NCBI GenBank assembly: GCA_037200925.1
Contig: JBBCGO010000001.1
Span: forward strand, 246,366-310,365
Source of the DNA: Candidatus Doudnabacteria bacterium
Lineage (GTDB): Bacteria; Patescibacteriota; Doudnabacteria; UBA920; O2-02-FULL-48-8
Reading direction: 5' to 3'
Length of the DNA: 64,000 nucleotides
How positions within the stretch are numbered: position 1 is the first letter of the stretch; each line of letters begins with the position of its first letter. Below are positions 13,896-35,525 of this stretch, one piece after another. A program made the translations under genes and the position numbers. The notes below the pieces were generated by a model. That model saw nothing but the letters and a program-made list of their open reading frames with translations. It was not told where the DNA came from and did not search any database.

Positions 13896-13902
13896 CTATT
13901 AA

Positions 13903-17752: not shown

Positions 17753-17999
17753 AGTTGGCTTTCCTGATGATTTCCAATTTTTCGCTTTGGGATAATTGTT
17801 TGATGCGATATTCTTTGGCCTGCGCAGAAGATCTGTTGCGGAATTTTTGGGAAAAAATAAGTTTTACCGGCCTTCTGCCCCGCGTGTATTTGGCGCCCAA
17901 AACCGAGGAATTATGCTCGCGCACTCTTCTGGCCAGATCGACGCAGATGCCGGTATAGAGCGTCTTATCCGCGCATCTGAGAATGTAAACATAATACAT
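17730..17999 (-). CDS. GIY-YIG nuclease superfamily protein (UPF0213-like)
   Basis: 89 aa; YYVYILRC...LYTGICVDLARRVREH GIY-YIG core. Confidence 0.65.
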   Translation of the reverse strand: MYYVYILRCADKTLYTGICVDLARRVREHNSSVLGAKYTRGRRPVKLIFSQKFRNRSSAQAKEYRIKQLSQSEKLEIIRKANYERKQSR

Positions 18000-18025
18000 A
18001 AGATGATCAGAAAAACACCAAAGCT

Positions 18026-18256
18026 CTATTTTTTATACTGATTTATTTTATTTTCCAGGACTTTTTTCGCCTCAGGATTGGTCATCGTCGGCAAAAGACT
18101 TTCCGCTTCACGGATATACAGATCCCTGTTATTCCCAACTATTCCTGGAGCAGTCTCCACTTCGCCCGGGTTATCGATCAGCTTTGACAGCCTCATCGCC
18201 ATTTCCACATCGCTTGCCCTCTCTTCCGGATTCCCTTGTTCTTTCTCATTTTCCAT
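18026..18256 (-). CDS. Hypothetical protein
   Basis: 76-aa acidic ORF. Confidence 0.3.
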   Translation of the reverse strand: MENEKEQGNPEERASDVEMAMRLSKLIDNPGEVETAPGIVGNNRDLYIREAESLLPTMTNPEAKKVLENKINQYKK

Positions 18257-19946: not shown

Positions 19947-22844
19947 ATGCTCAATTTAAGCAGGTTTTTATACGATACTCAAGGAAAAAACCGCATATTA
20001 AAAATAATCTCGCCGATCGCGGTGATCATCATTTCGGCAGTGCTTGTGCCTCCGATGAGCGCGCATGCCGATACTTTCACATCGCGCTGCACGGCCGCAG
20101 GAGTGGTACTCTGCAGCGGATTTGATTCCGCAGATGACATAGACAGCTTTGTTTCAGGAAATGAGGTCGGGACAACTCTCGGCGTGTTTGACCCCACGAA
20201 CCAGGCATCCGGAACAGGCTCCATGAAATTTACGATCCCGAGCCGCACCGGCGCCAATTCATCCGGCGATTATGAACGCCTGATCAATGAATCAAGCGCC
20301 GGCTACAAAACCGGCTCCGTGTTCTTCGTCCAGTTCCGCCAGCGCTTCTCGCCGGAAATGCTTTCATCTGCCATGGGCGGCAACGGCTGGAAGCAGGTGG
20401 AGATCACCACACCCTTCAGCACTTACGGCGACGCGCCCGGCATCGGGCTTTTTAACCAATCATTCGGCAACATGCCAGTGCTTTACGTCAACGGCGCAAC
20501 CTTCACGCAAACTCCCTCTGACGGCACTGCCGTTTCTTATGTCGCCAACCAGTGGATGACCTTTGCTTTTGAGATCCATGTCGGCGATTGGGGCGCGTTC
20601 AACACGACTGTGAAGGTTTGGGCAGCTCCGGAAAACCAGCCCTTAAAACAGATCTACAATGTGACCAATGCCGCTCCAGGGCAAAACCCCAGCGACCCTG
20701 ATTCCGGGTACAACAAAATAATGTTCGGCCCGAACAACACAGGCAAACTTGCAACAACTGTCCACACGCCGGCCACGACCTGGTATGACGAACTGGTAGT
20801 TTCAAACAACCAAATTGCGGATCCGTTCACACCGGCTGACACCACAGCTCCGGTGCTTGCGGAAGTAACTCCGGTCCCAACTCCGACTAGCGACAATACT
20901 CCTGACTACACTTTCTCTTCCACAGAAGCCGGGACCATTACTTATGGCGGTGATTGTACGTCTGCGACCACGGCTGCGGTGGTAGGCAACAATACTGTAA
21001 CATTCAACACACTTGCAGACGGAGTTCATATGAATTGCACCATCATGGTCACTGATGCTGCTTCAAACCAAAGCCTGCCTTTGAGCGTAAATACTTTTAC
21101 AGTGGACACAACTGTTCCGGATACAACTCCTCCCGTCATCTCGGCCGTCACTTCCACAGCGATAACCCAAACCGGCGTGACGATCAGCTGGATGACGGAT
21201 GAAAATTCAACTTCACAAGTGGATTATGGCCCAACCACGAGCTACGGCTCATCCACGGCATTGGACACATCTTTGGTCACAAGCCACAGCCAGAACATCA
21301 CAGGATTGACTGCCGGGACCATTTACCACTTCCATGTAAAATCAGCCGATGCGGCAAACAATCTTGCCACTTCTGATGATTTTAATTTCACAACTCTTGC
21401 CGCAACTGACACCACAGCTCCGGTGCTTGCGGAAGTAACAGCAGTACCAAGCCCAACCAATGACAATACTCCTGACTACACCTTCTCATCCACAGAAGCG
21501 GGTACTATCACCTACGGTGGTGATTGTTCTTCCGCTACGACATCTGCGGTTGCGGGTAACAACACCGTAACCTTCAACACACTTCCTGACGGAGTTCACT
21601 CAAACTGCACTATCGTGGTCACTGACGCATCAGGAAATGCAAGTACTGCGCTCAATGTCAGCGCCTTTACTGTGAACACGGCCACTCCCGCACCTTCTCC
21701 GCTGACAGTGACCATCAATCAGTCCGCAAAGCAGGCTGACCCAACCAAAAAATCTCCGGTCAGCTTCACAATTATTTTCTCGGAAAAAGTAAAAGGATTC
21801 AAAGCCTCGGATGTTAATTTCTCCGGCACTGCCACAGTGGGCAAGCCTTATCTGTCAGGCTACAGTGCAACTTTCAAGATCTACGTGCCTGTCAAAACCA
21901 GCGGAACTGTCATCGCTACGATTCCCGCGGGAATTGCCACTGACAAGGCCGGCAACAGCAATGCCGCTTCCACTAGCACGGACAATACGATAACTTTTGA
22001 CAACACTCCTCCGGTTATCTCAGCTGTGGCTTCATCTGCCATAACTCTGGACAGCGCCACCATCACCTGGACCACTGATGAGAATTCGGATTCTCAGGTT
22101 GACTATGGCACGACCAACTATTATGGCTTCTCTACAAAATTGGATAAAACCTTGGTGATGAGCCACAGCCAGAACCTGACCGGACTTTTGGCACTCTTAG
22201 ATAAAAATGACCGATATCACATGAGACCACAGCCAATTGCCGGAAAAACCATACACTTCCGGGTCAGGAGTAAAGATGCGCTAGGAAACCTGGCCAAATC
22301 AGCTGACTTCACATTCACCACGGTGCAGCCGGCCAATGGAGCCGCTCCGACTGTGACCATCAACCAGGCTGCGGGACAGGCTGACCCGACAAATCAATCG
22401 CCCATCAGTTTCACTATCGTATTCTCAGAACCTGTGATCGGATTCTCAGCCAAAGATGTGAAGATCTCCGGTGTTGAAGAATACGGGTATGCGTCCCTGT
22501 CCGGCACAGGCCCCACTTATACATTAAGTGTTCCTGTCAAAGACAACGGCACTGTCACTGCCTCGATCCCAGCCAATGTGGCCATTGACTCGGACGGCAA
22601 CGGCAACGTGGCCTCCACCAGTACGGACAATTCCGTAACATTCAAACGCAACAAAATATACGCGGACGGCACTGTCATCTGCGGCTCAGGCCCCACTCTT
22701 TACATGGTTTCAAATCATGGACATGACAAACTTAGCATCCCGTCCATGGCTGTATTCAACAGGCTGAAACTTTCGCTGAAGAATGTGGTCAGAGTGGATG
22801 ACAGAGACCTGTCTGATTACCACGACGGCGGGCAAGCACATTGA
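19947..22844 (+). CDS. Large secreted multi-domain surface protein (Ig-like/FN3-like repeats) with conserved C-terminal module
   Basis: 965 aa; signal peptide; two FN3-like copies (PPVISAVTSTAIT...YHFHVKS and PPVISAVASSAIT...), two Big-like copies (DTTAPVLAEVT...), C-terminal IPSMAVFNRLKLSL...Y.DGG module. Confidence 0.7.
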   Translation: MLNLSRFLYDTQGKNRILKIISPIAVIIISAVLVPPMSAHADTFTSRCTAAGVVLCSGFDSADDIDSFVSGNEVGTTLGVFDPTNQASGTGSMKFTIPSRTGANSSGDYERLINESSAGYKTGSVFFVQFRQRFSPEMLSSAMGGNGWKQVEITTPFSTYGDAPGIGLFNQSFGNMPVLYVNGATFTQTPSDGTAVSYVANQWMTFAFEIHVGDWGAFNTTVKVWAAPENQPLKQIYNVTNAAPGQNPSDPDSGYNKIMFGPNNTGKLATTVHTPATTWYDELVVSNNQIADPFTPADTTAPVLAEVTPVPTPTSDNTPDYTFSSTEAGTITYGGDCTSATTAAVVGNNTVTFNTLADGVHMNCTIMVTDAASNQSLPLSVNTFTVDTTVPDTTPPVISAVTSTAITQTGVTISWMTDENSTSQVDYGPTTSYGSSTALDTSLVTSHSQNITGLTAGTIYHFHVKSADAANNLATSDDFNFTTLAATDTTAPVLAEVTAVPSPTNDNTPDYTFSSTEAGTITYGGDCSSATTSAVAGNNTVTFNTLPDGVHSNCTIVVTDASGNASTALNVSAFTVNTATPAPSPLTVTINQSAKQADPTKKSPVSFTIIFSEKVKGFKASDVNFSGTATVGKPYLSGYSATFKIYVPVKTSGTVIATIPAGIATDKAGNSNAASTSTDNTITFDNTPPVISAVASSAITLDSATITWTTDENSDSQVDYGTTNYYGFSTKLDKTLVMSHSQNLTGLLALLDKNDRYHMRPQPIAGKTIHFRVRSKDALGNLAKSADFTFTTVQPANGAAPTVTINQAAGQADPTNQSPISFTIVFSEPVIGFSAKDVKISGVEEYGYASLSGTGPTYTLSVPVKDNGTVTASIPANVAIDSDGNGNVASTSTDNSVTFKRNKIYADGTVICGSGPTLYMVSNHGHDKLSIPSMAVFNRLKLSLKNVVRVDDRDLSDYHDGGQAH
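20838..21439 (+). repeat. Tandem intragenic duplication (32-mer GACACCACAGCTCCGGTGCTTGCGGAAGTAAC at 20838 and 21408; period 570 bp)
   Basis: identical 32-nt strings 570 bp apart in frame within the surface-protein gene. Confidence 0.8.
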
Positions 22845-22957
22845 ATTTGCGAGGAGTCCCGATTATTCGGGACGACGAAGCAATCGGCTCTCGGCAGGAT
22901 AAAGGGAGCTCCGCGGTTTAGACTGCCACGCTCCGACTAAAACGTCGGAGCTCGCAG
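22842..22957 (+). repeat. 116-bp structured repeat, copy A (inverted partner at 35410..35525, 3 mismatches)
   Basis: starts at the TGA stop of the surface-protein gene; internal hairpins GTCCCG-attatt-CGGGAC and CTCCGAC-taaaac-GTCGGAG. Confidence 0.85.
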
Positions 22958-22962
22958 ATGCG

Positions 22963-23376
22963 CTAAATCGTAGATCCAAAACAACCCCCTAAATTCGGGG
23001 GTTGTTTTTTTTGGCTAAAAATATTGGGGTATGTTTCCATCAATTTTTTGAGTGAGTCGGTATCTCCAGAGATGCGCAAAACCTCGGCAAATAAACGCTG
23101 GTCTCTCAGATTGCTTTCGGAGCGCATGATCCCGTACAGTACTATCCTCGGATCAGGGCTGTCTTTGGAACTGCGCAGTTCAATTCCTGATTTTGCGGCC
23201 ATTGCTTCTACCTGCAGCACCACGGGCTTATCCGGCGTGGTCGGCTGTTTGAATTTTTCCAGGACGTTTTGATAAGCTTTTTCATCTATCTGCCCGCCTG
23301 ATTCCTTATAGCGCTCAAAGCTCTTCTCGGGGCTGTCCTCGGTTTCTTTTTCGTTTCCTTGTGATTCCCTAGCCAT
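22963..23376 (-). CDS. Hypothetical acidic protein
   Basis: 137 aa; 3' end runs through the terminator hairpin so true stop may be earlier. Confidence 0.35.
   Translation of the reverse strand: MARESQGNEKETEDSPEKSFERYKESGGQIDEKAYQNVLEKFKQPTTPDKPVVLQVEAMAAKSGIELRSSKDSPDPRIVLYGIMRSESNLRDQRLFAEVLRISGDTDSLKKLMETYPNIFSQKKQPPNLGGCFGSTI
22980..23012. terminator. Bidirectional rho-independent terminator
   Basis: AACAACCCCC-taaatt-CGGGGGTTGTT flanked by A-run and T8. Confidence 0.7.
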
Positions 23377-23437
23377 ATTTTTAACGGTTAATGCCTATCT
23401 GTATTATACACCCAAAACAAGTTTTCTTTCATTCGCT

Positions 23438-23453
23438 CATTCGCGCGAATGAT
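23438..23453. repeat. 16-bp perfect palindrome TCATTCGCGCGAATGA (ATTCGCGCGAAT family)
   Basis: self-complementary; upstream of 22963..23376. Confidence 0.6.
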
Positions 23454-23512
23454 TCCAAAAGGGCCGGTAGAGCAGCCGCTATTTTTTTCCAGCGAGGCTT
23501 AGAAAAAGTGGC

Positions 23513-23553
23513 GAAAGAATAAATTCAACGCCTCAGGATCACCTGAGGCGTTG
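23513..23553 (-). terminator. Rho-independent terminator (GCCTCAGG...CCTGAGGC hairpin family)
   Basis: AACGCCTCAGG-atcac-CCTGAGGCGTT followed by T-rich run on minus strand; same hairpin family at 43890. Confidence 0.55.
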
Positions 23554-23589
23554 AAGGTTTTAAGCAATCCTCAAAAGTTCTTTCTAAAT

Positions 23590-24132
23590 TTACTGTGCGA
23601 CAATGTTGGCGCAGGCAACATTCGCGGTCACACCCGCAGCCGATTTATCCACGCTTACCGACATCGGATTGGCCGTAAGGTCGGCCATGTTTGCGTTGAC
23701 CGTAGTATCGGATTTTCCGTTTACCGTGGAATTGAGCGTATATTTTACCGCGCCGGGGTTGGCGCAGGTACCTGAGTTAATATGCGCAGGCAAAGAGAGA
23801 TTCAGCGGCCCGCCGACCGTATTCAGTACGACATCGGTTCCATTCGGCGTTTGCGTAAACGTTACGTTGCCGGCTACTCCGGAACTATTCTGCGTCTGAA
23901 GCGGTATTGTTAAGTTTTGCGGCGCATTTGCTCCGGCCGATCCGTTGGCGCCGTTGGATCCGTTTGCCCCAGTGGCTCCGGTCGCCCCATTAGACCCGTT
24001 GGTTCCCGTACTCTGAGATTGGTTATTCTGCTCCGTGGTGGTTGTCTTCGGTCTTAGGAAAAAATACCAACAGGCGAGCAATAAGAGGATAACTAAGATG
24101 GCGATAACCCACCATTTGCTTGTATTGTTCAT
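23590..24132 (-). CDS. Membrane-anchored secreted protein with collagen-like Gly-X-Y repeats
   Basis: 180 aa; N-terminal TM WWVIAILVILLLLACWYFF; GTNGSNGATGATGANGSNGANGSAGA (8 G-X-Y triplets). Confidence 0.5.
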   Translation of the reverse strand: MNNTSKWWVIAILVILLLLACWYFFLRPKTTTTEQNNQSQSTGTNGSNGATGATGANGSNGANGSAGANAPQNLTIPLQTQNSSGVAGNVTFTQTPNGTDVVLNTVGGPLNLSLPAHINSGTCANPGAVKYTLNSTVNGKSDTTVNANMADLTANPMSVSVDKSAAGVTANVACANIVAQ

Positions 24133-24184
24133 AGAATATATTTAATGATGTGAAGATCTCGACCTTTATTTAAGTGCTTGGTCA

Positions 24185-24514
24185 TTATACCAAAATACGC
24201 CAAGGATTAAAACTTACAATTTTTGACAAAAATATCAGAAGCGCTGCCTGCTCCAGGATCAGCAAACTTATGCCGAGCGGAAAATAGAATTTCCTGGTCT
24301 TGTGATGAAAAAATATCATGCCCAAAAGTACGCCCAACGAAGCGAAGAATATGGCGATAAAAAAATAATAAACTTCCGGTATGCGTTCCGTATTGTCTAC
24401 GCTGCTTTTTTTGTCTATCCCGACCAAAATAAACGCGAGCAGGTTTACCGCAGCTAATCCTCCGTAAAAAATTAATAGCCCGTTGGTCATAAAAATTTGA
24501 ATAAATCCCCGCAA
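24185..24514 (-). CDS. DUF1294 family membrane protein
   Basis: 109 aa; GIDKK...ERIPE...GG..G...HKTRK signature. Confidence 0.5.
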   Translation of the reverse strand: MRGFIQIFMTNGLLIFYGGLAAVNLLAFILVGIDKKSSVDNTERIPEVYYFFIAIFFASLGVLLGMIFFHHKTRKFYFPLGISLLILEQAALLIFLSKIVSFNPWRILV

Positions 24515-24553
24515 TCCTGAACTCGTTTCAGGATCTCTTTGTCCTGGGTATTG

Positions 24554-24582
24554 CCAACTATTCTCCTATTCGCGCGAATGAG
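24554..24582. repeat. ATTCGCGCGAAT family repeat copy (CCAACTATTCTCCTATTCGCGCGAATGAG)
   Basis: shares 12-nt 5' flank CCAACTATTCTC and palindromic core with 16521 and 16821 copies. Confidence 0.6.
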
Positions 24583-24601
24583 TCCTACTCACCCTGAGCT
24601 T

Positions 24602-24841
24602 CTAGATATCAAACTCCTCAGGATCAAAACCCAATTCTTTAGCCGCTTCTAAAAAATCTTTTTTCTGAGGTTTTTTGATCCCTTTTTGCTTCGCATAAGT
24701 CTGGTTCAGATGAACGAGAATCCTGTCTATCTCTTCCTGGCTAAAGCCTCCTTCCATAAGCGAATTTATCCATCCGTGCATGTCTTCATCAGGAACAGAA
24801 GCGCCCACAATTTCACCTCGGTTTTCAAATCGATTTTTCAT
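24602..24841 (-). CDS. Hypothetical protein
   Basis: 79 aa acidic ORF. Confidence 0.3.
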   Translation of the reverse strand: MKNRFENRGEIVGASVPDEDMHGWINSLMEGGFSQEEIDRILVHLNQTYAKQKGIKKPQKKDFLEAAKELGFDPEEFDI

Positions 24842-24847
24842 GAATCC

Positions 24848-25522
24848 TCATTTATTAATAAATAAATGTGCATATTTCTCTCCAAAGTGTCGATACGCAC
24901 ACCATTTACAGTCTGGGTTTTCTGGAGGAACCGGACCTTCCAGCAATTTATTTACATCTTTCATGAATTTCAGAAAGTTTTCTCTTTCCAAATCTACTTC
25001 AACCCATTTGGGTGGAAAGGTTATTATTGCCTGATTTTTTTCAAATCTAACCTGATCTGGATACATGATAACTAACCCTAATTTAGTTATTTGTTTAGAT
25101 TTTCCTTTTTCTGGAAATTCAAATGCGTAATGATAAGCCTGAAGTTGCTTCTGGTATTTAGCGCCCTTTTCTTCATCAGGAGTCGTAATTTTAAAATCGA
25201 TAACTAGGTAAGTTCCATCCTTCTGCCTTACAAGAAGATCATATTTCCCTTTAATATACGCGTTGGTTTTCGGGATCAATTTTGATTCTACATATCCTTC
25301 CTGACTTTCCACTATACCTTCAGGCAAAAGCGGTGAGAGTTCCCGAAGGTTATTTCCGACCAACTTTCCCTGAAGAAGTGCGTTCAAAGTTGAAAAAACA
25401 CCGGGAAATGGCATCGAGGGTCGCTGCATCCCGTGTTTTATTTTAAGATAATAACAACACTTACATTCTTCGTATAAGTATGCAAAATCTGAAGGGCTTA
25501 GTTTGTACTTCTTATTTTCCAT
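24848..25522 (-). CDS. Cas4/RecB-like PD-(D/E)xK nuclease with Fe-S cysteine cluster (no CRISPR context)
   Basis: 224 aa; N-terminal CKCCYY cysteines, LVIDFKIT (D..K catalytic), QLQAYHY (QxxxY), C-terminal CKWCAYRHF CxxC. Confidence 0.55.
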   Translation of the reverse strand: MENKKYKLSPSDFAYLYEECKCCYYLKIKHGMQRPSMPFPGVFSTLNALLQGKLVGNNLRELSPLLPEGIVESQEGYVESKLIPKTNAYIKGKYDLLVRQKDGTYLVIDFKITTPDEEKGAKYQKQLQAYHYAFEFPEKGKSKQITKLGLVIMYPDQVRFEKNQAIITFPPKWVEVDLERENFLKFMKDVNKLLEGPVPPENPDCKWCAYRHFGEKYAHLFINK

Positions 25523-25540
25523 AAACCTATAAATTATCTT

Positions 25541-25556
25541 TTAATTACGTAATTAA
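25541..25556. promoter_or_regulatory. 16-bp perfect palindrome TTAATTACGTAATTAA about 20 bp upstream of the Cas4-like gene (second copy at 31858)
   Basis: self-complementary; located within the likely promoter of 24848..25522. Confidence 0.55.
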
Positions 25557-25667
25557 ATATGTTATTTATAAATCCAGTTCGTCAATATCAATACCCGGAT
25601 CTTCCAAACGGGTTAAAGCTACCTCTGGATCGACGAGTTCATTCGCCGTTCTTTCCCTAAGTCCGTC

Positions 25668-27552
25668 TTACGCAATAGAAACATATTTTAATAATTCTTT
25701 TTTATTATTTTTTTTATCTTTTGGTTTGTATCCTACAAAATTACAAATATCAATAATCTTTACGATAAATTTATCAAATTCTTTTTTACTCATTGTTATA
25801 TTATTGCCAACCAGATTGCTAGTCTGCCATTCAGCAGACACGTTAAGTGGGGCTTGGGGTCTATGACCTTGAATATTAAAAATATCGTGATCTTTTTGTG
25901 TTATCCAGCCAGCACCAACTTCTGATACAGCGCCCCAAGATCTAGCCATATGATCACTAGTAACATAAATAACAAACATTTTTTTATCAGAATAACTATC
26001 GACAAAAAAACTACGAAGATATTCAAAAATACCTATACGGTTAGGGATACGGGAGTCCGCATTGTCCGAATTTGAATAAATAATATCCTCATCCGGAAGT
26101 CCATTAAAAGATAACATCTTATATATAACATCAGACAAGGGTTTGTCTTCTAGAGTCTGACTAATCAAAATTCTTTTTTTCTGCGAATCAACTCTTCTCT
26201 TGATACCAACAATTGGAAGAAATTTATTCATCTCATCCCGGATTATTCTCTGTATGGCTGGAATACTGCCACCAAATCTGCTAGCGATCTTGCTGGTTGC
26301 CCCACCTGACGCTGCCGTTTTGTACTCATCTACTTTTTTTCTTAATTCTTCTTCGTCTTTCTTCTCTCTTTCTTGCTTTTGCTGTTCTTTCTTCTTTTTA
26401 TTAAATTGTACCCAAACATTACGCATGTTAATTATACGAGGCAGTAATTCATCTCTCACATATTTTATTACTTCTATATATCGAAGATCATCTGTCTTAT
26501 ATCCTTGCCGGTTACTTAATGACATGTCTGGTAGCTCCGTGGCTTCGAAAAGGTCAATATGTAATTGTCCAACTATAAACACTTCTTGAAGTTTATTAGC
26601 ACCAACAACAGGTAGAATATTATATTCACCTAGTTTACCATTGGAGAGTATTGAAATAAAATTATCAGGAAAATCGTTCGAGTCTTTCTTTCTGTCTTTT
26701 GTAGTTCTGTAAGCCCCTACCCAACCTTTTATAATTACTTCATATTTTTTATCTTCGCCTTTTCTGTTGACTAAGTTCAACGGGATAGCCACGGCACTGT
26801 CTTTTTTAAGAAGACCACCTTCTATCTCATTATTTTTGCTAAATCCGGAATCAAAGTACTTAGCAAGTCCCTGATACTCTTTGCCAAAAGTAATCAAAGC
26901 ACCAAGGCCTCTAATTATCTCTTTATCAAAATTATCAATAATAATTGTATCTTTATCAGTGATAATATGAATTCTAAAATCTTTACTAACTAATGGAAAA
27001 ATTTTAAGTAAATTGTTGCGTATTGCGGTTACGGTGGCATTTAGTCCATATTGCGGATTTGTCATAACTATTGACGTGCCATTTTTCCGAATATATTTAA
27101 ATTTAATATCTTTATTAGCGATTGCTTCCAATCTATGATCTTCGCCTACGTTTCGAGAAAGAATAAAACCAGATTTTTCATTATCTTTTACAGTCATCAC
27201 TGAAACTTTTTCTGAAACTGAAAGAGCAGCTAACTTGCCAACACCTTTGCGACCCATTCTTTTACGAGTCCCGTCTTCAGTATAGACGTCTTTTTTTGTT
27301 GTGCGAGTCTCAATAGCTACATCAAGGTATTTTTTTTATATCACCATCTTCATAAGACATCCCAATACCATCATCTTCAACAATTATACGATCCTCTTTT
27401 TTTATAATGTATACATTTGAAGCCATCGCATCATATGCGTTTGCAATTAATTCAGCTAAGACATAATAAATATTAGTATAAAGACTCGGTCCCAACAATT
27501 CCAAAACTCTAGGACTTATATTGAGTTTATATTCACGGTTATTATTATTCAT
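25668..27552 (-). pseudogene. MORC-like GHKL (HATPase_c) ATPase, interrupted by -1 frameshift at A8 homopolymer (27331..27338); possible phase-variable gene
   Basis: N-terminal 76-aa ORF has ELIANAYDA (N box) and DDGIGM (G1 box); downstream 529-aa ORF begins with GRKGVGKLA (G2 box); removing one A from the A8 run joins both frames into one ~634-aa protein. Confidence 0.65.
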
Positions 27553-28637
27553 ACAAGCATTCTAATATGCTCTTTAATACTCTTTCCGATAACCGATCCA
27601 AGTCTAACTGGCACAGCATTTCCTATAAACTTAGCAATATTCTTACTTACGATGGATGTTTTCTTATCCACAAACATATAATCCATAGGAAAAGTTTGAA
27701 AGAGGGCGGCCTCTCGCAGACTTATTGCTCTATCTTGGTCCGGATGGCCAAACCGGCCATTTCCAAGACCAATACATTGCGTTGTCATTGTGGGAGCAGG
27801 TTGGTCCCATTTCATCCTACCATATACGGTACTACGATAAGTTTTTCCAGATTCACTCTTATGACACTTAAGTTGCAAATCCTCACTCCAACTTTTTGAA
27901 TTACCTCCGTTGACAGGGGTTGCTTTAATTCTTCGTAAATTAATATCATTTAATTTCCTTGCTCTATGCAATGGATCTTTATTGCTAATATCCCCATCTT
28001 TTAAAGGCTCCAGGTCCGCAATCACATCACGGACAGTGACACGGTTATTTATATGGGTTCTTTTTATTAAAGAAATATTCCCAAATTTAGAAGCTAAAAG
28101 CACAAGTCTTTTTCTCCTCTGCGGGACTCCAAATTCAGAAACATCCACAACCTCGTACTTGTAATTATAATTATTTTGCTTAAGTGTTTTTACAAACTTA
28201 GCAAAAACTGGATACTTTTTCATGTTAGCAAGGCTGCTAACATTTTCCATTGAGACTATATCAGGCTGAGTTTCAGCAATAAGCCTAGCAAATTTATCTA
28301 AAGGCTCAAGCTGTTTTTTAGTTATTTTGTTCAAGTTTAATTTTGAGAATGGCTGACATGGAGCGCATCCTGCAAGTACTCGTATGGTTTGATTTTTTGG
28401 CCCGAACAATTTATCAATCTGCTGAGGAGTTACATTAATAATGTCTTGATCAATAAACTTTGTTTTATTGTTGTATTCATAGCCGAACTTACAGCTACTA
28501 TCATTGTCTATGCCTGCAACAACATCAATGCCTTCTTTAATTAGTCCGTGCGTTAAACCACCAATACCACAGAATAAATCAATAACTTTTATTCTTTTTC
28601 TTTTATTTCTTTTCATAGTTTTATTATTTGCTTTCAA
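27549..28637 (-). CDS. dcm: DNA (cytosine-5)-methyltransferase
   Basis: 362 aa; motif I VIDLFCGIGGLTHG, motif IV PCQPFS, ENV motif; ATGA overlap with downstream ATPase start. Confidence 0.85.
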   Translation of the reverse strand: MKANNKTMKRNKRKRIKVIDLFCGIGGLTHGLIKEGIDVVAGIDNDSSCKFGYEYNNKTKFIDQDIINVTPQQIDKLFGPKNQTIRVLAGCAPCQPFSKLNLNKITKKQLEPLDKFARLIAETQPDIVSMENVSSLANMKKYPVFAKFVKTLKQNNYNYKYEVVDVSEFGVPQRRKRLVLLASKFGNISLIKRTHINNRVTVRDVIADLEPLKDGDISNKDPLHRARKLNDINLRRIKATPVNGGNSKSWSEDLQLKCHKSESGKTYRSTVYGRMKWDQPAPTMTTQCIGLGNGRFGHPDQDRAISLREAALFQTFPMDYMFVDKKTSIVSKNIAKFIGNAVPVRLGSVIGKSIKEHIRMLV

Positions 28638-28718
28638 CTATGGCTATTTCGCCTTCACTCAATCCATACAACTTATATACTTCCTGATCAATTTTACTAC
28701 AACAATCAAGCTGCAGTT

Positions 28719-29813
28719 TTATTTCCCAGATTTAGTTCTATTGTCATCTTTGCACAACATCCGACAATTTTCTGAAATTGTTCTTCCTCCTTCGTGCCAA
28801 GGTTTTATATGATCAGCTTCCATCTCGGAAATATCGAAATGTTTTTTGCAAACAGGGCAAATACCTTTTTGTTTCTCATAAGCTTCGCGCTTCATCTTTT
28901 CTGTAAACGCCCGAATTGAAAGGTATTTTTCTTGCCTCGTCAAAACATACGGATAAATACCAGACTTCTTGGTAACATCTTCGTCTTGCATTAACTCTTT
29001 AATTTCCGTTTCCAATTTAACAGAACTTAGTTTTTTATCTTTGAATTCATTATGCAGCTCGCCCCATTCCACATGAGCCATTTCGCGCCGATAATTTGGA
29101 AATGTCTTTTGCGCCCAGGAAATTACGTCCTGAAAATATTCCCACAACTTGTCAGCGCTTTTGTCTTTCTGATGTTTGCCCATGTAATCTTCAATTTTAT
29201 CATCACTGATCCAGCGGAGTGCCGTTTCCAGATACTCTTGGCGGTTCAATGCTCCACTCACATAGTCATGAGCCAGTAAATACGCCGGCGCGTTGCTCTT
29301 ACTGAAATAACGCTTGGCATCGGTTACCCAAGGCCCTGAATAAATAGCGTTCAACAATTCTTGAGGTGTAAGTTTCTCGCCAGCGGTATTGATGACCTTA
29401 AACCACGCCAGCTTTTCATCATCCGTACCTTCGCAAAAATATACCATGAGCGGATAGTCGCGGATATTCTTTTTCTCTTCTTCCGTCAAGTTATCGAAAT
29501 ACATCTGGTACCCGCGGTTCATAACGTTAAAATCCCCGGCCAAAAAGTTACAGATGCTTACAGTGCGCTGCTGGCCATCAAGGATTTCGAAACTACCACC
29601 ACTGTTTTTCACCCAGTACATCGCGTTTAGAGGAAACCCGCCCATCACCGAATTAATAACCGCGATCTGCTGTTCGGGTCTATAAATAAACTCGCGCTGG
29701 TATTTCGGGCGGATATTCAGACTGCCGCCATACCCAACGACACCCTCCTCTTCAATGTTTTTATACCCGTCAACTATTTTATGTATCGGAATTTGATGTA
29801 GTTCAATTTTCAT
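28719..29813 (-). CDS. DUF262 (ParB-like nuclease domain) plus C-terminal HNH endonuclease (GmrSD-like architecture)
   Basis: 364 aa; DGQQRT motif of DUF262; C-terminal CPVCKK...ADHIKPWHEGGRTISENCRMLCKDDN HNH motif. Confidence 0.7.
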   Translation of the reverse strand: MKIELHQIPIHKIVDGYKNIEEEGVVGYGGSLNIRPKYQREFIYRPEQQIAVINSVMGGFPLNAMYWVKNSGGSFEILDGQQRTVSICNFLAGDFNVMNRGYQMYFDNLTEEEKKNIRDYPLMVYFCEGTDDEKLAWFKVINTAGEKLTPQELLNAIYSGPWVTDAKRYFSKSNAPAYLLAHDYVSGALNRQEYLETALRWISDDKIEDYMGKHQKDKSADKLWEYFQDVISWAQKTFPNYRREMAHVEWGELHNEFKDKKLSSVKLETEIKELMQDEDVTKKSGIYPYVLTRQEKYLSIRAFTEKMKREAYEKQKGICPVCKKHFDISEMEADHIKPWHEGGRTISENCRMLCKDDNRTKSGK

Positions 29814-29846
29814 ATTGGTTAAGTTATTTTATGTTTCATAAACCTA

Positions 29847-30476
29847 TTAAATATTAAAATACCTACAGATAAACCGTTTTAATCTAAAAAAATTAAGACC
29901 TGTTAAAAGCCAAATAAATGGTACAACTTTAGAATTTTTTTCTTTTTCTAATTCTTTCCTGAGACTAAGATATGCTGTACGAGCTTGCCCATCATGCTCT
30001 CCGCCTATTAATTTATGGACTACAACAAGTAAATCTTCAGCTCTCTTTTTTATCTCTGGTTTTATATTGTCCCAAACCTCAGCGTTAGAAAGAAAATTAT
30101 GGTGTAATGCTACTCCTTGATTGAAATTACTTAGTGCCTGCTTAGCAGAAACTAGGGTTTTAATAAGCTCTGGATTAGTAAATAAACTACCGGCAGTAGC
30201 GATTGAATTGTCTATGGCCAAGCTTTCTATTTTAAAAACAATTTTTCTCAAAAGTTCTTTATCCTCCCTTATCTCTTGAGATCTGCTTTCCGGCCAATTC
30301 GTGCTAAGCCAATATTGAACTCCCTCGTCTAGTTCGGCTTGGATAGCATTTAATACACTACTTCTAGTATGCCAAATTCCTAGCCGATAAATAATCCAAG
30401 CAACTATAGCTGTGATAACAACTGATGACCCACTTGGATGCTCGCTAATTGTTGTAAATATTGAATTTATGTCCAT
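29847..30476 (-). CDS. Hypothetical protein with N-terminal TM segment
   Basis: 209 aa; SSVVITAIVAWIIY hydrophobic segment. Confidence 0.35.
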   Translation of the reverse strand: MDINSIFTTISEHPSGSSVVITAIVAWIIYRLGIWHTRSSVLNAIQAELDEGVQYWLSTNWPESRSQEIREDKELLRKIVFKIESLAIDNSIATAGSLFTNPELIKTLVSAKQALSNFNQGVALHHNFLSNAEVWDNIKPEIKKRAEDLLVVVHKLIGGEHDGQARTAYLSLRKELEKEKNSKVVPFIWLLTGLNFFRLKRFICRYFNI

Positions 30477-30518
30477 TGTTTTTCCTTCAACATTGGATTA
30501 AATTTATTTCCAAAAAAA

Positions 30519-31622
30519 TTATTTTTTCAAACGGATTAAAATACGAGGAAATGTATTTTTCAGTCCTGCTGAAGTTTTTAAGACCGGACCAGCATTTAAG
30601 TCACTATAATTTTTTGCATCGATAATTGTATAAACCTTGCTCTTTAAAGCAGGGTCACCAGCTCCTCTTTTAGCCATACCAATAATTTCGAACTGTTCAG
30701 GATTGTACTTATCAAGGAACGTAATCGGAACACCCATGACACTATTGTAATCTTGTGGAATATCTAATTTTTTCGAAACTTCAATAGCATCGTAGTTCTC
30801 GTATTTAGGATATTCTTCGGGATTGTATGTTTTGTAAAAAGTCATTTTCTCATGACGCTTTGTGGTATCAAGGTTTGTAAACCATAAAATACGACCAAAG
30901 CTAAAATACTTTATACCATTCACAACTTTCTTTCTGGATTCTGTATCTATGTCGTATTCTTTGGGGACTTGAAACCATTTTGTCCCGCCATTGTCATAGC
31001 CAAGCCACAATTTATTTTCTTTGATGAGTTTAAAAATTTCTTTATAGGTTATGGCATTCTGGTCCCCTAGAATCAAAAACTTTTTTTTGTGTTCAACAAG
31101 CTGTGCCACGTAGTCACGAAAAAGAGAAAACGGCGGATTGGTGACCACTATATCTGCTTGGTTGAGAAGTTCTATACATTCCTCACTGCGAAAGTCTCCG
31201 CCGTCTTTGAGGGAGGTTGAAACATTTGCATCGTGCCGGAGCAACCATTCGACATCAGAGAGGCCAATAGCGCCATCAGAATTGGAATCTGGAACTTCAT
31301 TAATTTCAATTTTAAACGGCTCTTTGCCTTTCGGTTTTAGGCCTTTGACTTCAAGGAGTGGTAACTGTCCTCCCGCAATTGGCGACTTTGTATAACTGGT
31401 GGTGATTAACTTTTTGAGACCGAGAGCATTAAAATTAGCAGCGAAATATTTAAAAAAATTACTCTCGAACGGATCATCGCAATTGCAATAAATAATCTTA
31501 TCCCGAAACTGTTCTTTGTAATGTTTTAGTTCTTTTTCAATATCAACAAGCTGAGTATAAAACTCGTCTTTCTTAGCTGCGCTTGCTTTGTGTAAGTTGC
31601 TATTTAATGATTTATTTGACAT
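30519..31622 (-). CDS. DNA methyltransferase, N6-adenine/N4-cytosine class (NPPF motif)
   Basis: 367 aa; DIVVTNPPF catalytic motif IV; AT-rich. Confidence 0.6.
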   Translation of the reverse strand: MSNKSLNSNLHKASAAKKDEFYTQLVDIEKELKHYKEQFRDKIIYCNCDDPFESNFFKYFAANFNALGLKKLITTSYTKSPIAGGQLPLLEVKGLKPKGKEPFKIEINEVPDSNSDGAIGLSDVEWLLRHDANVSTSLKDGGDFRSEECIELLNQADIVVTNPPFSLFRDYVAQLVEHKKKFLILGDQNAITYKEIFKLIKENKLWLGYDNGGTKWFQVPKEYDIDTESRKKVVNGIKYFSFGRILWFTNLDTTKRHEKMTFYKTYNPEEYPKYENYDAIEVSKKLDIPQDYNSVMGVPITFLDKYNPEQFEIIGMAKRGAGDPALKSKVYTIIDAKNYSDLNAGPVLKTSAGLKNTFPRILIRLKK

Positions 31623-31623
31623 T

Positions 31624-31800
31624 CTATTTCTTCCAATCCCTGACTATCAAATGTTTCCCTTTTTGTATCACTTTAACTTTCTGTCTTTCCCGCCAGCCGA
31701 GCTTTTCCACCAATTCGATCGGCAAGGTTAAGCCCAAAGACTTCCTGCCCATTCGGGTCAATTTTCTGATATTTTGGTCGCCGTGCTTTCTAACACCCAT
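31624..31800 (-). CDS. AbrB/MazE-fold (swapped-hairpin) small DNA-binding protein, not in ORF track (58 aa)
   Basis: manual translation MGVRKHGDQNIRKLTRMGRKSLGLTLPIELVEKLGWRERQKVKVIQKGKHLIVRDWKK; stop 2 nt before MTase ATG; shorter alternative start at 31752. Confidence 0.45.
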   Translation of the reverse strand: MGVRKHGDQNIRKLTRMGRKSLGLTLPIELVEKLGWRERQKVKVIQKGKHLIVRDWKK

Positions 31801-31857
31801 GTGATTAGCTCTTCGTCTGGATCCCGGATCAAGTCCGGGATGACAGCCAGTATGTAA

Positions 31858-31873
31858 TTAATTACGTAATTAA
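31858..31873. promoter_or_regulatory. Second copy of palindrome TTAATTACGTAATTAA, upstream of the AbrB-like/MTase operon
   Basis: identical 16-mer to 25541..25556; followed by hairpin ATCCCGGA-tcaag-TCCGGGAT. Confidence 0.55.
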
Positions 31874-31911
31874 ATCTTACCTCTATTCTGCCACTTTTTG
31901 CCCGAAAAAGC

Positions 31912-31938
31912 AAAAAGCGGCCTTTCGGCCGCTTTTTG
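31912..31938. terminator. Bidirectional rho-independent terminator
   Basis: GCGGCC-tttc-GGCCGC flanked by A5 and T5. Confidence 0.6.
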
Positions 31939-31948
31939 TACTAGTCTT

Positions 31949-32197
31949 TTAAGCAGGATTGTAATTTAGCACTCGCCAAGTATTATGTTCTTTGATAGCT
32001 TGAATGACTTTTTGATTTTTTCCTTTTACTTTTCCGGCAGAATATCCACTCCAAGTATTAAATGCATCATCGCCCTTTATGGTAAATATGACCAAAGACC
32101 CGTTTGGAATTTTGTTCCAAACTCTCGGATTCTTAGATGCATATTTATCAAACTCAAAAGAAAGCTTGATATTTTTCTGTACAAAAAGTGTATTCAT
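31949..32197 (-). CDS. Hypothetical protein
   Basis: 82 aa; terminator immediately downstream. Confidence 0.4.
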   Translation of the reverse strand: MNTLFVQKNIKLSFEFDKYASKNPRVWNKIPNGSLVIFTIKGDDAFNTWSGYSAGKVKGKNQKVIQAIKEHNTWRVLNYNPA

Positions 32198-32225
32198 AGT
32201 AGTTTTAAATTAATATTTTTTATTT

Positions 32226-32537
32226 CTATTTCGATATTAGATAATTTTCTTTGATTTTTAGAAAATCTCTTTCAATTAATAATTTAGCCTGTATAAAGGC
32301 CTTATTATTATCATCTATGCCTAATGGTACCCAATATTCTCTGTCATGTAAATGATACTTATGCACATGGCCTAAACCATGACAATTATCAATCCTCATT
32401 ATAGTTTTCCATTTTGAATCAATTCTGGCGTAGTATTGAACCACAAATTTAACAATCTTGCCTCTATTCCGGCTAAATTTAATCCTTAATTTATCATCTT
32501 CAGTCAAAAATCTAGTATTATCCACTTCCCTGATCAT
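32226..32537 (-). CDS. Hypothetical protein
   Basis: 103 aa; AT-rich. Confidence 0.35.
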   Translation of the reverse strand: MIREVDNTRFLTEDDKLRIKFSRNRGKIVKFVVQYYARIDSKWKTIMRIDNCHGLGHVHKYHLHDREYWVPLGIDDNNKAFIQAKLLIERDFLKIKENYLISK

Positions 32538-32632
32538 TTTAGTATTTTAGATTGTTTAACAAAAATAGCGGCCTTAAGCCGCGCAAGCTATCAACATAAT
32601 GCTTATTAATTATATTCCTTTTTCCCAAAAAG

Positions 32633-32992
32633 TCAAATTTTATGGTGACTTAATGGTTCGTGTTTATCTCTTATTAGTTCATTGGTTTTCAAATCTCTAA
32701 CAACTTCATGATATTCATCTTTTTCTCTGTCAATAATTCTTACTTTATCAACTCCAAATTCTTTATCCTTGGTTATAATATTTTGAAACCAACCCTGAAT
32801 AATCTCTTTTAATGGTCTTTTAAATCCGTTTCTCTTGTGTTTAAGTTCGAGGCTCATTCTTATGTTTGTAGTTTCTTTGATATGAACCTTAATCATAGCG
32901 GCGACTGAGCCGCAATTTGAACAAGGTTTTTCCTCAAAATTTAACTTTCGTCTACAATTTTGACAAAATTTTTCTTGAGTAACTTCAGTCAT
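32633..32992 (-). CDS. Zinc-ribbon protein, hypothetical
   Basis: 119 aa; CQNCRRK...CSNCG CxxC...CxxC; terminator GCGGCCTTAAGCCGC downstream. Confidence 0.4.
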   Translation of the reverse strand: MTEVTQEKFCQNCRRKLNFEEKPCSNCGSVAAMIKVHIKETTNIRMSLELKHKRNGFKRPLKEIIQGWFQNIITKDKEFGVDKVRIIDREKDEYHEVVRDLKTNELIRDKHEPLSHHKI

Positions 32993-33033
32993 ATATTTAT
33001 ATTATTATTTCACAAATCGCTAGATAAATCAAA

Positions 33034-33069
33034 CAAAAAACCAGCCTTTCGGCTGGTCTTTTCTTTTTA
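33034..33069. terminator. Bidirectional rho-independent terminator
   Basis: CCAGCC-tttc-GGCTGG with A7 upstream and T-rich run downstream. Confidence 0.6.
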
Positions 33070-33282
33070 CATTTCCGGCAGAGCAGAGAACTTCTTTTTG
33101 AAGTCATCCATCCACTTGGTTGTTTCCTCAGGTGTCATTTTCTTGACCTGTTCCGCAAGTTCCGGATGGGCCTGGTTTATATGAACCATGCCGTTGCTGA
33201 CCATTTCTTCGGGGGTGTTGCCGCTGATCATCACGGTGCAATCGGCAGGGCCACCCATTTGGGAGCACAAGATCTGCTTCAT
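33067..33282 (-). CDS. Small hypothetical protein
   Basis: 71 aa. Confidence 0.35.
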   Translation of the reverse strand: MKQILCSQMGGPADCTVMISGNTPEEMVSNGMVHINQAHPELAEQVKKMTPEETTKWMDDFKKKFSALPEM

Positions 33283-33308
33283 ATTATAGGCTTCCTTTTT
33301 TCTTAGTT

Positions 33309-34553
33309 CTAATTTTGAATTCCGCCGTCATCATAACTGCCAAGCTCGCTGTCGGAAAGCTTGACGATCTTGCCCAGGGACAAACCTAACCGGTTAAACA
33401 CGGCCATGGAAGGAATGCCCATTTTAGCGTCGCCTGCAACCAAGTAAACCGTAGCTGCGCTTCCTTTGATCAAAGTCCCGTCCGGGTAGCCCATGATCCG
33501 TCCGACGCTGACAGCCGCGAACTGGTCAGACGAAATAGTCTGGACATCCGAGAACTTTAACCCGCGGGCAGTGAAGATAGTCGCAGTGCTGAACGGTCTT
33601 AGCATCCCGTTGACTACCAGATAAACAGTACCGCTGCCGGCCACTTTCACCACTGAACCGTTTGCGTAGTTGAACATCACACTTGGCGGCGTAGGAGCCG
33701 GGGTCGGTGTCGGAGTCTGATAAACAGGGGTCGGATACATGATATTCGGGGTCGGGTACGGGGTTGGGTATTGTACAGGCGCACCGGGACTTGGCGAAAC
33801 AACTGTGTTTGAATCCAGCGTCACTGCGGTCTGGGCAAGTGCCCGGCCATTGAGAGTTGCGCCGGTGTTGAGCACAATTGCTGATTGATCCAATATATTT
33901 CCGTTGAAAACAGATGTCGTGCCAAGCGTGGTTTGGCCGCCGACAGCCCAAAAAATATTACCGGCCTGGGCCCCGCCGCTTAAAATAACATGTGTTCCGG
34001 AACTCGTGGTGAGAGTTTGCGCTATCTGGAAGATCCAGACATCCGAAGCAGATCCTGCGAGTGTGACATCCGACGGTATGGTCACGCCTGTGCCCCATTT
34101 ATACAATCCCGGAGCAAGCGTCATGCCGCCAATGTTTCCGGCGCCCAATTCCGTGGCAGTGGGCAGTGTCCGGCCCACGGCATCAACATATGCGGTTTGC
34201 ATGTCCATTATCGCAGTGGTCATGTTCGCCGGTGTGGGGTCTGCGTAGCCTGGCGCGTATGCTTTTCCGCTTACCAATGCTGAGGTGGAAAATGCGCCTC
34301 CGGCAGGAAGAGTTAAGGCAAAGCCTGTCAGGGAGCTCGCCGCAGCCGGGCTTACTCCAATGTCCCCGACAATACTCGTGGTTCCAGTGGTAGAGATCCC
34401 TGTTTTTGCCAGGATGGCAAAATTACCCGCAGTTCCGAGGTTGACCATTGCCGGCCCTGCGGCCAAAGCAGTTGCCGAGAAAGCCAACGCCAGACCCGCG
34501 ATAAGACCCACAAACATATTTCTTCTCAAGATATTCCTAAAATTTATTTTCAT
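33309..34553 (-). CDS. Ice-binding-like (DUF3494) secreted protein with Pro/Thr linker and shared C-terminal module
   Basis: LGTAGNFAILAKTGISTTGTTSIVGDIGVSPAAASSLTGF matches DUF3494 N-terminal signature; PTPYPTPNIMYPTPVYQTPTPTPAPTPP linker; C-terminal IPSMAVFNRLGLSL...YDDGG; start moved to ATG 34553 preceding the signal peptide. Confidence 0.7.
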   Translation of the reverse strand: MKINFRNILRRNMFVGLIAGLALAFSATALAAGPAMVNLGTAGNFAILAKTGISTTGTTSIVGDIGVSPAAASSLTGFALTLPAGGAFSTSALVSGKAYAPGYADPTPANMTTAIMDMQTAYVDAVGRTLPTATELGAGNIGGMTLAPGLYKWGTGVTIPSDVTLAGSASDVWIFQIAQTLTTSSGTHVILSGGAQAGNIFWAVGGQTTLGTTSVFNGNILDQSAIVLNTGATLNGRALAQTAVTLDSNTVVSPSPGAPVQYPTPYPTPNIMYPTPVYQTPTPTPAPTPPSVMFNYANGSVVKVAGSGTVYLVVNGMLRPFSTATIFTARGLKFSDVQTISSDQFAAVSVGRIMGYPDGTLIKGSAATVYLVAGDAKMGIPSMAVFNRLGLSLGKIVKLSDSELGSYDDGGIQN

Positions 34554-34847
34554 TTGTTTCTGATTAATTTTTTCTATTATAGATTTAATTATAAAACAGG
34601 TTGAACGTTTAGTCAAGGAAAGTTTTTATGCTACCTTTTGTGCAGACGAAAAGGTAGCACCAAAAGCTGCCGGCGGCTCTCGGCAGCACAGAGGTAGTGA
34701 ATTTAGAGAAAAATTTGCCAGAATTCTTAGCTCGCTTCGGCGTGTTCGCAAGGCCTAATCGGCGTTGCGAACGCTAACCCAGCCTCGCTCGCGTCAAATT
34801 CTGACCAGATTTTTCAAATTGCCGGAAAAACCGAAACCTAACTCGGC

Positions 34848-35372
34848 TTAATAAAAAGAATAATTTTTTAGTTCTTTCCTTATGGCTCTGTAATCCGGAA
34901 CTGTCTGCCGCACCAGGGCCCAGAAATTTTCCGAATGGTTCATTTCCTTCAAATGGCACAGTTCGTGCACGATTATGTAATCAGCCTGATTGAGCGGCAG
35001 TTGCGTGATCCTGTGATTGAAATTCAGGTTTTTCCGCACAGAACAGCTTCCCCAGAGACTTTTATGATCTTTTATGCTCACACGGCCATAATTAAACCGG
35101 TAATGTTGGTTATATAGTTCTATCCGGCTTTTCACAAAGGCCAGAGCATCGGAGCGGCTCATGGCGGGTGCCAGCGGGATAGATTTGCGATTTTTCTGAA
35201 AATTTATTTTCTTGGCTATCCAAGCGGATTTGGAGCGGATAAATTCCTCAGCTGAGGCGACGGAAACCCTCAGAGGTTTGGTCACGACCACCCGCCCGCC
35301 GGGATATATTGTGATGCGGATGTGCCTGGCTCTGGCGCTGGACCTGATCTGATATTCGATCTCTGTTTGCAT
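34848..35372 (-). CDS. YgjP-like (DUF45/M48-related) zinc metallohydrolase
   Basis: 174 aa; IIVHELCHLKEMNHS HExxH motif in the characteristic C-terminal position. Confidence 0.65.
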   Translation of the reverse strand: MQTEIEYQIRSSARARHIRITIYPGGRVVVTKPLRVSVASAEEFIRSKSAWIAKKINFQKNRKSIPLAPAMSRSDALAFVKSRIELYNQHYRFNYGRVSIKDHKSLWGSCSVRKNLNFNHRITQLPLNQADYIIVHELCHLKEMNHSENFWALVRQTVPDYRAIRKELKNYSFY

Positions 35373-35409
35373 TCTGTAATTTTAAGATAAAAAAAGAAAA
35401 ATATCGAAT

Positions 35410-35525
35410 CTGCGAGCTCCGACGTTTCAGTCGGAGCGTGGCAGTCTAAACCGCGGAGTTCCCTTTATCTTGCCGAGAGCCGATTGCTTCGTCGTCCCGA
35501 ATAATCGGGACTCCTCGCAAATTCA
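35410..35525 (-). repeat. 116-bp structured repeat, copy B (reverse complement of 22842..22957)
   Basis: 113/116 identical to copy A in inverted orientation. Confidence 0.85.

Follow-up and report, generated by a model that had tools for sequence, protein, structure and literature searches.

Results

The inverted repeat pair and its surroundings

The DNA analysed here is a 64,000-nt stretch (the window) of a metagenome-assembled Candidatus Doudnabacteria genome (GenBank assembly GCA_037200925.1, 964,444-nt contig JBBCGO010000001.1, positions 246,366–310,365). It contains two copies of a palindromic element of about 118 nt, copy A and copy B, in inverted orientation on either side of a segment that holds restriction-modification genes. 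An earlier note on this DNA, made from the sequence alone, had described the copies as the boundaries of a 12.7-kb AT-rich defence island and had offered three identities for them: elements resembling miniature inverted-repeat transposable elements (MITEs), recombination boundaries, or a structured RNA family. We find that each copy is a complete member of a family of palindromic elements dispersed over several phyla, that members of this family in other genomes enclose or adjoin a gene for a small GIY-YIG nuclease, and that the drop in GC (guanine plus cytosine) content between the copies begins and ends well inside them. The features of the locus, in window coordinates, are as follows (ORF, open reading frame).

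22842–22959, plus strand: copy A, palindromic element of about 118 nt; supplies the TGA of the surface-protein gene and is followed by a terminator
22847–22885, plus strand: left half-module of copy A, TTGCGAGGAG, hairpin 1 GTCCCGATTATTCGGGAC (22856–22873), GACGAAGCAATC; exact match to the family pattern
22921–22959, plus strand: right half-module of copy A, GACTGCCAC, hairpin 2 GCTCCGAC TAAAAC GTCGGAGC (22930–22951), TCGCAGAT
22978–23008, plus strand: intrinsic-terminator-like hairpin and T run, just 3' of copy A and outside the repeat
22966–24140, minus strand: spacer of normal GC content (0.482), with a 137-aa ORF and a 180-aa ORF (weak collagen-repeat match)
24141–33060 (approximate): low-GC block of about 8.9 kb, GC 0.360, from a composition scan; its genes, all on the minus strand and in order of window coordinate, are DUF1294, a 79-aa ORF, PD-(D/E)XK/Cas4-like, GHKL and C5 methyltransferase, GmrSD_N+HNH, a 209-aa ORF, EcoRI-type methyltransferase, DUF5647, DUF7718 and a zinc-ribbon ORF
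33061–35401, minus strand: spacer of normal GC content (0.498), with a 71-aa ORF, an ice-binding-like gene (33309–34616) and a YgjP-like gene (34848–35372)
35408–35525, minus strand: copy B, in the intergenic region that separates two divergent genes, YgjP-like (34848–35372, minus strand) and dienelactone hydrolase (35594–36328, plus strand)
Parts of copy B: left half 35482–35520, hairpin 1 35494–35511, right half 35408–35446, hairpin 2 35416–35437

A repeat search returned the pair as arms at 22842–22965 and 35402–35525 (124 nt, 96% complementary, 12,436 nt apart). The second-best inverted pair in the window is 34 nt long at 71%, which excludes a chance origin. Compared base by base over the 116 nt first reported as about 97% identical (22842–22957 and 35410–35525), the copies differ at exactly three positions, 22897/35470, 22908/35459 and 22939/35428. 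All three are transitions, with A/G changes running both ways between copies A and B. The outer 55 nt of each copy are perfectly identical, and identity remains good up to 22959/35408; the element is about 118 nt long. Copy A starts at the TGA of a 965-aa surface-protein ORF (19947–22844; fn3/Big_12), and the two hairpins, GTCCCG..CGGGAC and GCTCCGAC..GTCGGAGC, are present, both as described before. The copies are short and non-coding, and their termini, GAATTTGCGAG and CTCGCAGATTC, pair with each other. No target-site duplication was found at copy A (flanked by GCACAT and GCGCTA), at copy B (flanked by GAGAAC and TCGATA) or around the 12.7-kb unit as a whole.

A dispersed family of palindromic elements

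When one representative genome is scanned per species, the 20-mer hairpin is found in 27 genome stretches. In some of these, from Thermodesulfovibrionia, Nitrospirae and an uncultured bacterium, it lies inside elements with the termini TGTCATTGCGAG ... CTCGCAATGACA. About one third of the 27 stretches were rejected as family members; they are plain terminator hairpins, and one lies in tRNA-like sequence. The module common to the window copies and the genome elements is TTGCGAGGAG-hairpin-GACGAAGCAATC. With a free loop, as TTGCGAGGAGTCCCG-N4-10-CGGGACGACGAAGC, the module occurs on at least 120 metagenome contigs, and the left 39 nt of the window copies match it exactly.

We refer to this unnamed group as the 'CATTGCGAG' family, defined here by alignment A1 and by R1, a covariance model built from 36 canonical elements. 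The canonical element reads TGTCATTGCGAG(GAG)-hairpin-GACGAAGCAATC-variable loop-GATTGC(TTCG/CACG)-hairpin-CTCGCAATGACA. Its left half is thus (T)GTCATTGCGAG(GAG)-hairpin-GACGAAGCAATC and its right half GATTGC(TTCG or CACG)-hairpin-CTCGCAATGAC(A). In the window, the left half-module TTGCGAG(GAG)-hairpin-GACGAAGCAATC is matched exactly at 22847–22885 on the plus strand and at 35482–35520 on the minus strand. R1 matches copy A at 22843–22962 on the plus strand (51.3 bits, E=4e-11, model positions 1–101) and copy B at 35405–35524 on the minus strand (54.7 bits, E=5e-12, full length). Since the model matches full length, each window copy is a complete, somewhat diverged member of the family, not half of a larger structure. 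The divergence lies in the right half: R1 sets GACTGCCAC-hairpin-CTCGCAGAT against GATTGC..CTCGCAATGAC, and the right half of copy A is the diverged counterpart of the canonical GATTGCCACG-hairpin-CTCGCAATGAC both in the model alignment and in alignments to two other loci (L133 and L072). One further match in the window, at 47115–47198 on the plus strand between convergent genes, is weak (19.1 bits, E=0.011 on a rough calibration). It has a CCGAC..GTCGG hairpin together with AAAGCAGGC and GACTGCC motifs, and is possibly a decayed third copy or a chance match.

The family occurs in Nitrospirota, Planctomycetota, Chloroflexota, Bacteroidota and bacteria of the candidate phyla radiation (CPR), to which Candidatus Doudnabacteria belongs. 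In 907 kb of fetched loci we count 223 strict half-modules, and solo halves are common. The loops between paired halves are mostly 4–56 nt long or hold a gene of about 300 nt, with a few larger spacings of 1.1–6 kb. Midpoints of elements fall inside mechanically called ORFs of at least 120 aa in 35% of cases, against a background coverage of 76%. The orientation of the flanking genes is random (6, 6, 5 and 4 over the four classes). Elements are also clustered, and several family matches stand at contig ends. The earlier note had named, as an outcome that would count against its reading, a dispersed repeat found at many unrelated loci without accessory DNA beside it. At the level of the family this description fits: on its 120 or more metagenome contigs the family occupies mostly ordinary intergenic sites.

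The family was not found in Rfam or, with sequence strings and GIY-YIG nuclease terms, in the open-access literature, and may be described elsewhere. None of 4227 Rfam models matched the window at the gathering threshold, nor did any match the canonical elements; permissive thresholds around copy A gave only sub-threshold, terminator-like matches. The 121-nt window element has no match in plasmid or phage collections by sensitive blastn.

Elements at several loci depart from the canonical form. In another Candidatus Doudnabacteria metagenome-assembled genome (locus L005, 287–390), the same hairpin is framed by GTCATCCCGAG ... CGAGGGATC in place of GTCATTGCGAG ... GCAATC, and R1 does not detect this element at E<0.001, which suggests a sister family of like architecture. 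Three orthologous metagenomic loci (L042, L133 and L139) have both half-modules in common, with the centre AATC-loop-GATTG exchanged for an unrelated hairpin, CCCGACTGGTCGGGG; here modules appear to have been swapped, not merely mutated. At five loci (L062, L063, L082, L125 and L146) the right halves are of the form GATCGCC...CTCGCGATGACA, with CG for TG/CA at two positions. These pair with standard GTCATTGCGAG left halves, leaving T-G and A-C mismatches in the stem, which suggests that halves of different sub-families recombine.

Two observations concern the turnover of elements and their behaviour in assemblies. The mnmE-mutS spacers of two loci (L035 and L166) are orthologous and differ by element-sized insertions, which indicates element turnover. 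An independent short-read assembly of the same strain as the window (Logan SRR28211699) breaks exactly at both copies. Its interior contig of 12,632 nt corresponds to 22867–35500 and its right-flank contig begins at 35496, so that both break inside copy B. Exact matches to proteins of the locus came only from this assembly of the same strain, and two proteins had no record.

Predicted fold of the elements

Both window copies fold better than shuffled controls, as RNA (z −3.8 to −5.4) and as DNA (z −3.5 to −3.6). At minimum energy, copy A as RNA adopts a four-way junction whose arms are a terminal stem, a central stem-loop and two side hairpins, GTCCCG and GCTCCGAC. Canonical elements, folded as single-stranded DNA, give a four-way junction as the minimum-energy fold with z of −6 to −9. 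In the 36-element alignment, RNAalifold finds a terminal stem of 11 bp, a GCAATC/GATTGC inner stem and the left hairpin, both of whose variable pairs show compensatory changes. Whether single-stranded or extruded from the duplex as a cruciform, the element is predicted to form a four-way junction.

Association with a GIY-YIG nuclease gene

In two loci (L032 and L035) the gene between paired halves can be placed precisely: an ORF of about 96 aa starts 7–19 nt after GCAATC, and its stop codon is followed directly by the right half GATTGC..CTCGCAATGAC. The same nested layout is seen in two others (L099 and L061), in which the halves are more diverged. The nested ORF encodes a bare GIY-YIG domain (Pfam E of about 1e-16 to 1e-18), and among solved structures the UPF0213 proteins BH0048 and EF2693 (PDB 1zg2 and 1ywl) are nearest to it. 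We know of no function for the UPF0213 family in bacteria. In the section on the Slx1 cluster in Dunin-Horkawicz et al. (PMC1564403), this group corresponds to the prokaryotic orthologues of Slx1, a eukaryotic nuclease of branched DNA, and that section makes no mention of associated repeats.

Ascertainment bias was countered by sampling from the protein side. More than 2000 protein homologues were found and five were traced to their contigs, which come from Anaerolineales, Planctomycetes B3_Pla, Pedobacter glucosidilyticus and two more metagenomic lineages. In all five, family elements enclose the nuclease gene or lie directly against it, with R1 scores of 34–76 bits. Many of the homologues are on contigs of 0.5–1.5 kb, as repeated DNA would give.

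At one Anaerolineales locus, near-identical in ten samples (L152–L161), the GIY-YIG gene with its flanking elements lies directly 3' of an Mrr-type restriction gene; the index of the collection lists this nuclease gene in 68 blocks. Taken with the window, the locus gives an anecdotal hint that the elements associate with restriction genes.

The window genome has a UPF0213 gene of its own, away from the repeats:

17730–17999, minus strand: UPF0213-type GIY-YIG gene, 89 aa, 36% identical to the element-borne nucleases

It belongs to a tight minus-strand cluster (17561–18256). A 76-aa ORF lies upstream of it, and the start of the DUF2196 gene downstream overlaps its 3' end. The nuclease is a candidate trans-acting partner of the window copies.

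The segment between the copies

The low GC content that was reported for the whole interval holds only for the block at about 24141–33060. The spacers on either side of it match the flanking DNA outside the repeats (0.50–0.51), and the edges of the block lie 1.2 kb inside copy A and 2.3 kb inside copy B. The repeats therefore do not bound the AT-rich DNA, contrary to the earlier note. The reported gene content of the interval mostly stands. The C5 and EcoRI-type methyltransferases, the PD-(D/E)XK/Cas4-like, GmrSD_N+HNH and GHKL proteins, the YgjP-like protein and the ice-binding-like protein are all confirmed between the copies; an AbrB-like regulator is not. The GHKL protein matches type II restriction-enzyme models and its gene adjoins that of the C5 methyltransferase, and the GmrSD_N+HNH protein matches a type II restriction-enzyme model with E=1e-131. 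The block carries two restriction-modification modules. No integrase, recombinase or transposase domain is present in the proteins scanned (19.9–38.3 kb), in agreement with what had been noted for the interval, and a tRNA scan of the window found no tRNA gene that might have served as an integration site. Because GC content falls only at about 24141–33060, and because neither a target-site duplication nor a recombinase is found, the island appears to be independent of the repeats, acquired separately between the two copies.

The GHKL gene (25668–27552, minus strand) is split into ORFs of 529 and 76 aa in the window and is intact, at 627 aa, in the short-read assembly. Over 12.6 kb the two assemblies differ only in the length of two T runs, by a single T each (23005 and 27330), so the frameshift at 27330 is probably a homopolymer sequencing error in the window.

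Several features outside the interval were noted in passing. The surface-protein gene upstream of copy A contains a direct repeat of 223 nt (20836–21058 and 21406–21628, 81% identity), which probably encodes duplicated Ig-like or fn3 domains. A second low-GC patch at 13001–16000 (0.33–0.34 in two 1-kb windows) overlaps an 851-aa LCAT/alpha-beta-hydrolase gene (13903–16458) and may be another acquired segment. On the other side of the locus, 38267–43819 (minus strand) encodes an 1850-aa protein with Big_5, A2M-like and PT-HINT/Vint (Hint-type) matches, and adjoins a Memo-like gene.

Discussion

Origin of the repeats

We favour the interpretation that the two repeats are non-autonomous, MITE/REP-like copies of a dispersed family (REP, repetitive extragenic palindromic), and that the restriction-modification block between them was gained in a separate event. 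We assign this a probability of roughly 70%. Of the three identities proposed earlier, the MITE-like one is thus preferred, since each copy is a complete palindromic element of a family found across several phyla. We infer that the elements are selfish DNA and that the GIY-YIG nuclease found with them drives their spread by acting on the ends that form the junction. The nuclease-carrying units would be the autonomous, driving form, because elsewhere the gene sits in the central loop or against elements, and the short units, both window copies included, would spread in trans. The nuclease might cleave the junction-forming termini, after which recombinational copying or reinsertion would follow. 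At this locus, one copy would have landed at the 3' end of the surface-protein gene, giving it its stop codon, and the other in a divergent promoter region, with the 8.9-kb low-GC block coming in separately between them. The inverted arrangement would then be incidental, offering at most 55 nt of perfect homology for an occasional inversion.

Several observations weigh against this interpretation. Neither a pair of empty and filled sites nor a target-site duplication was found, and mobility is therefore something that we infer. No close relative was found for a comparison of synteny: the nearest usable dienelactone hydrolase homologue is 59% identical, and the sole close one (89%) comes from a contig of 1.3 kb on which the upstream region is missing. 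The JGI metagenomes contain no match to the central 20-mer of the window element. The window copies are also less canonical than the consensus elements: their termini, GAATTTGCGAG and CTCGCAGATTC, depart from GTCATTGCGAG, and their fold as single-stranded DNA is less canonical in form and weaker (z of about −3.5). The UPF0213 gene of the window has no flanking element halves, and its product is only 36% identical to the element-borne nucleases. GIY-YIG genes could home into pre-existing repeats rather than mobilise them. Finally, the spacers of normal GC content could be cargo from a donor of similar GC content, which would make the 12.7-kb segment a single mobilised unit.

This last point leads to the strongest of the other explanations, in which the copies are the ends of a composite-transposon-like 12.7-kb unit that brought in the restriction-modification, ice-binding and YgjP genes together. 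All the defence and accessory genes do lie between the copies, on one strand. The outer ends of the copies resemble the family termini, the copies are still 97% identical, and the GIY-YIG ORF demonstrates that family elements are able to enclose a gene. Such a unit should have edges that coincide with the repeats, a target-site duplication and a mobility enzyme. Instead, the GC boundaries fall 1.2 and 2.3 kb inside, the outer flanks have no duplication, no transposase or recombinase is seen and no tRNA gene is present. Across the family, moreover, paired halves enclose 4–56 nt or the gene of about 300 nt, and the spacings of 1.1–6 kb are indistinguishable from those of neighbouring independent elements. 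We therefore regard a composite unit as unlikely. The polarity of the copies was also considered as evidence for such a unit and set aside as uninformative: each element is palindromic at its termini, so any pair of elements shows 'valid' outer ends.

It is still less probable that the pair serves as an inversion substrate, with homologous recombination between the 118-nt copies flipping a 12.4-kb segment. The 55 nt of perfect identity at the outer ends would permit this, and the interior assembles from short reads as a separate 12,632-nt contig that could lie in either orientation; a contig break of this kind is, however, expected at any repeat longer than the k-mer, inverting or not. There is no invertase among the scanned proteins, and a flip would have no obvious on/off effect on the genes.

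Conservation of the element as a functional structured RNA, whether as a stabiliser in a 3' untranslated region, a regulator in a 5' untranslated region or a small RNA, seems similarly improbable. The folds are significant, and the hairpin stems co-vary across the family. Copy A should be transcribed as part of a 3' untranslated region, because it lies between a stop codon and a terminator, and copy B stands in sense orientation upstream of the YgjP gene. Against an RNA, canonical elements score with R1 on both strands, and G-U-type pairs (17 cells) and A-C-type pairs (about 11 cells) are similarly frequent in the 36-element alignment, so that neither strand is favoured. The random orientation of the flanking genes points the same way, and the elements are clustered and found at contig ends, as repeats are. 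Neither the window nor the canonical elements match Rfam. An RNA family is neither required by the data nor contradicted by them. A diversity-generating retroelement was rejected, as the repeats are inverted, their mismatches are bidirectional transitions and the scanned proteins contain no reverse-transcriptase domain.

Comparison with known repeat and nuclease systems

Bacterial MITEs include Correia/CREE of Neisseria, RUP and BOX of Streptococcus, and Nezha of cyanobacteria. Like MITEs as generally understood, the family elements are small (about 85–135 nt), non-coding, multi-copy, mostly intergenic and stably foldable, with terminal inverted repeats, and their longer relatives hold a protein gene between the same ends. 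In other genomes, such same-ended units enclose the GIY-YIG gene and are candidate autonomous partners. The differences from MITEs are that no target-site duplication is seen, that the enclosed gene encodes a 96-aa GIY-YIG nuclease and not a DDE or other known transposase, that the same approximately 33 specified bases are conserved across several phyla, and that the interior is modular (left half, loop, right half and optional hairpins), with solo halves occurring freely.

The family also resembles REP sequences, bacterial interspersed mosaic elements (BIMEs) and REPINs with their RAYT proteins, which are Y1 HUH enzymes. As is generally known of those systems, the repeats are dispersed, palindromic and intergenic, often at the 3' ends of genes, and the family is likewise tied to one small nuclease-type gene with repeats on its flanks. 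The flanked gene here has the GIY-YIG fold (UPF0213), unlike the HUH/Y1 fold of RAYT; RAYT genes were not searched for. The predicted four-way-junction palindrome of about 100 nt also differs from the 20–40-nt hairpin or doublet of REP, and it has no GTAG-type head motif.

Free-standing GIY-YIG homing endonuclease genes, such as those of the phage Seg proteins and I-TevI, offer a third comparison, in that a GIY-YIG domain is encoded in a mobile or repeated DNA context. Unlike them, the element-borne protein is a bare catalytic domain without their DNA-binding domains, and the window copies, unlike GIY-YIG homing genes, hold no ORF. We know of no intron, intein or defined homing site for the element-borne UPF0213 protein. 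A likeness to Slx1, which cuts branched DNA, lies in the predicted junctions of the elements and in the standing of UPF0213 as its prokaryotic orthologue group in the Slx1-cluster section of PMC1564403.

Implications

For the window itself the result is deflationary. Since the island is not delimited by the repeats, the pair should be taken neither for the boundaries of an island nor for a new mobilisation device. The family behind the repeat, with its strongly conserved termini and predicted junction fold, is of more interest than the pair. One practical consequence is that family elements break assemblies and generate spurious ORFs. Tentatively, the elements and their embedded UPF0213 genes may constitute an undescribed class of prokaryotic mobile element, in which a minimal, structure-specific nuclease would recognise the cruciform or four-way junction made by its own palindromic ends and would spread itself, along with short non-coding derivatives, across phyla, including into the reduced genomes of CPR bacteria. 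If so, pairs of elements such as the one in the window would be prone to breakage and so favour the gain, loss or flipping of defence islands. If the nuclease does drive the repeats, this would give a function to UPF0213, and a GIY-YIG system would join the partnerships between repeats and nucleases exemplified by REP and RAYT.

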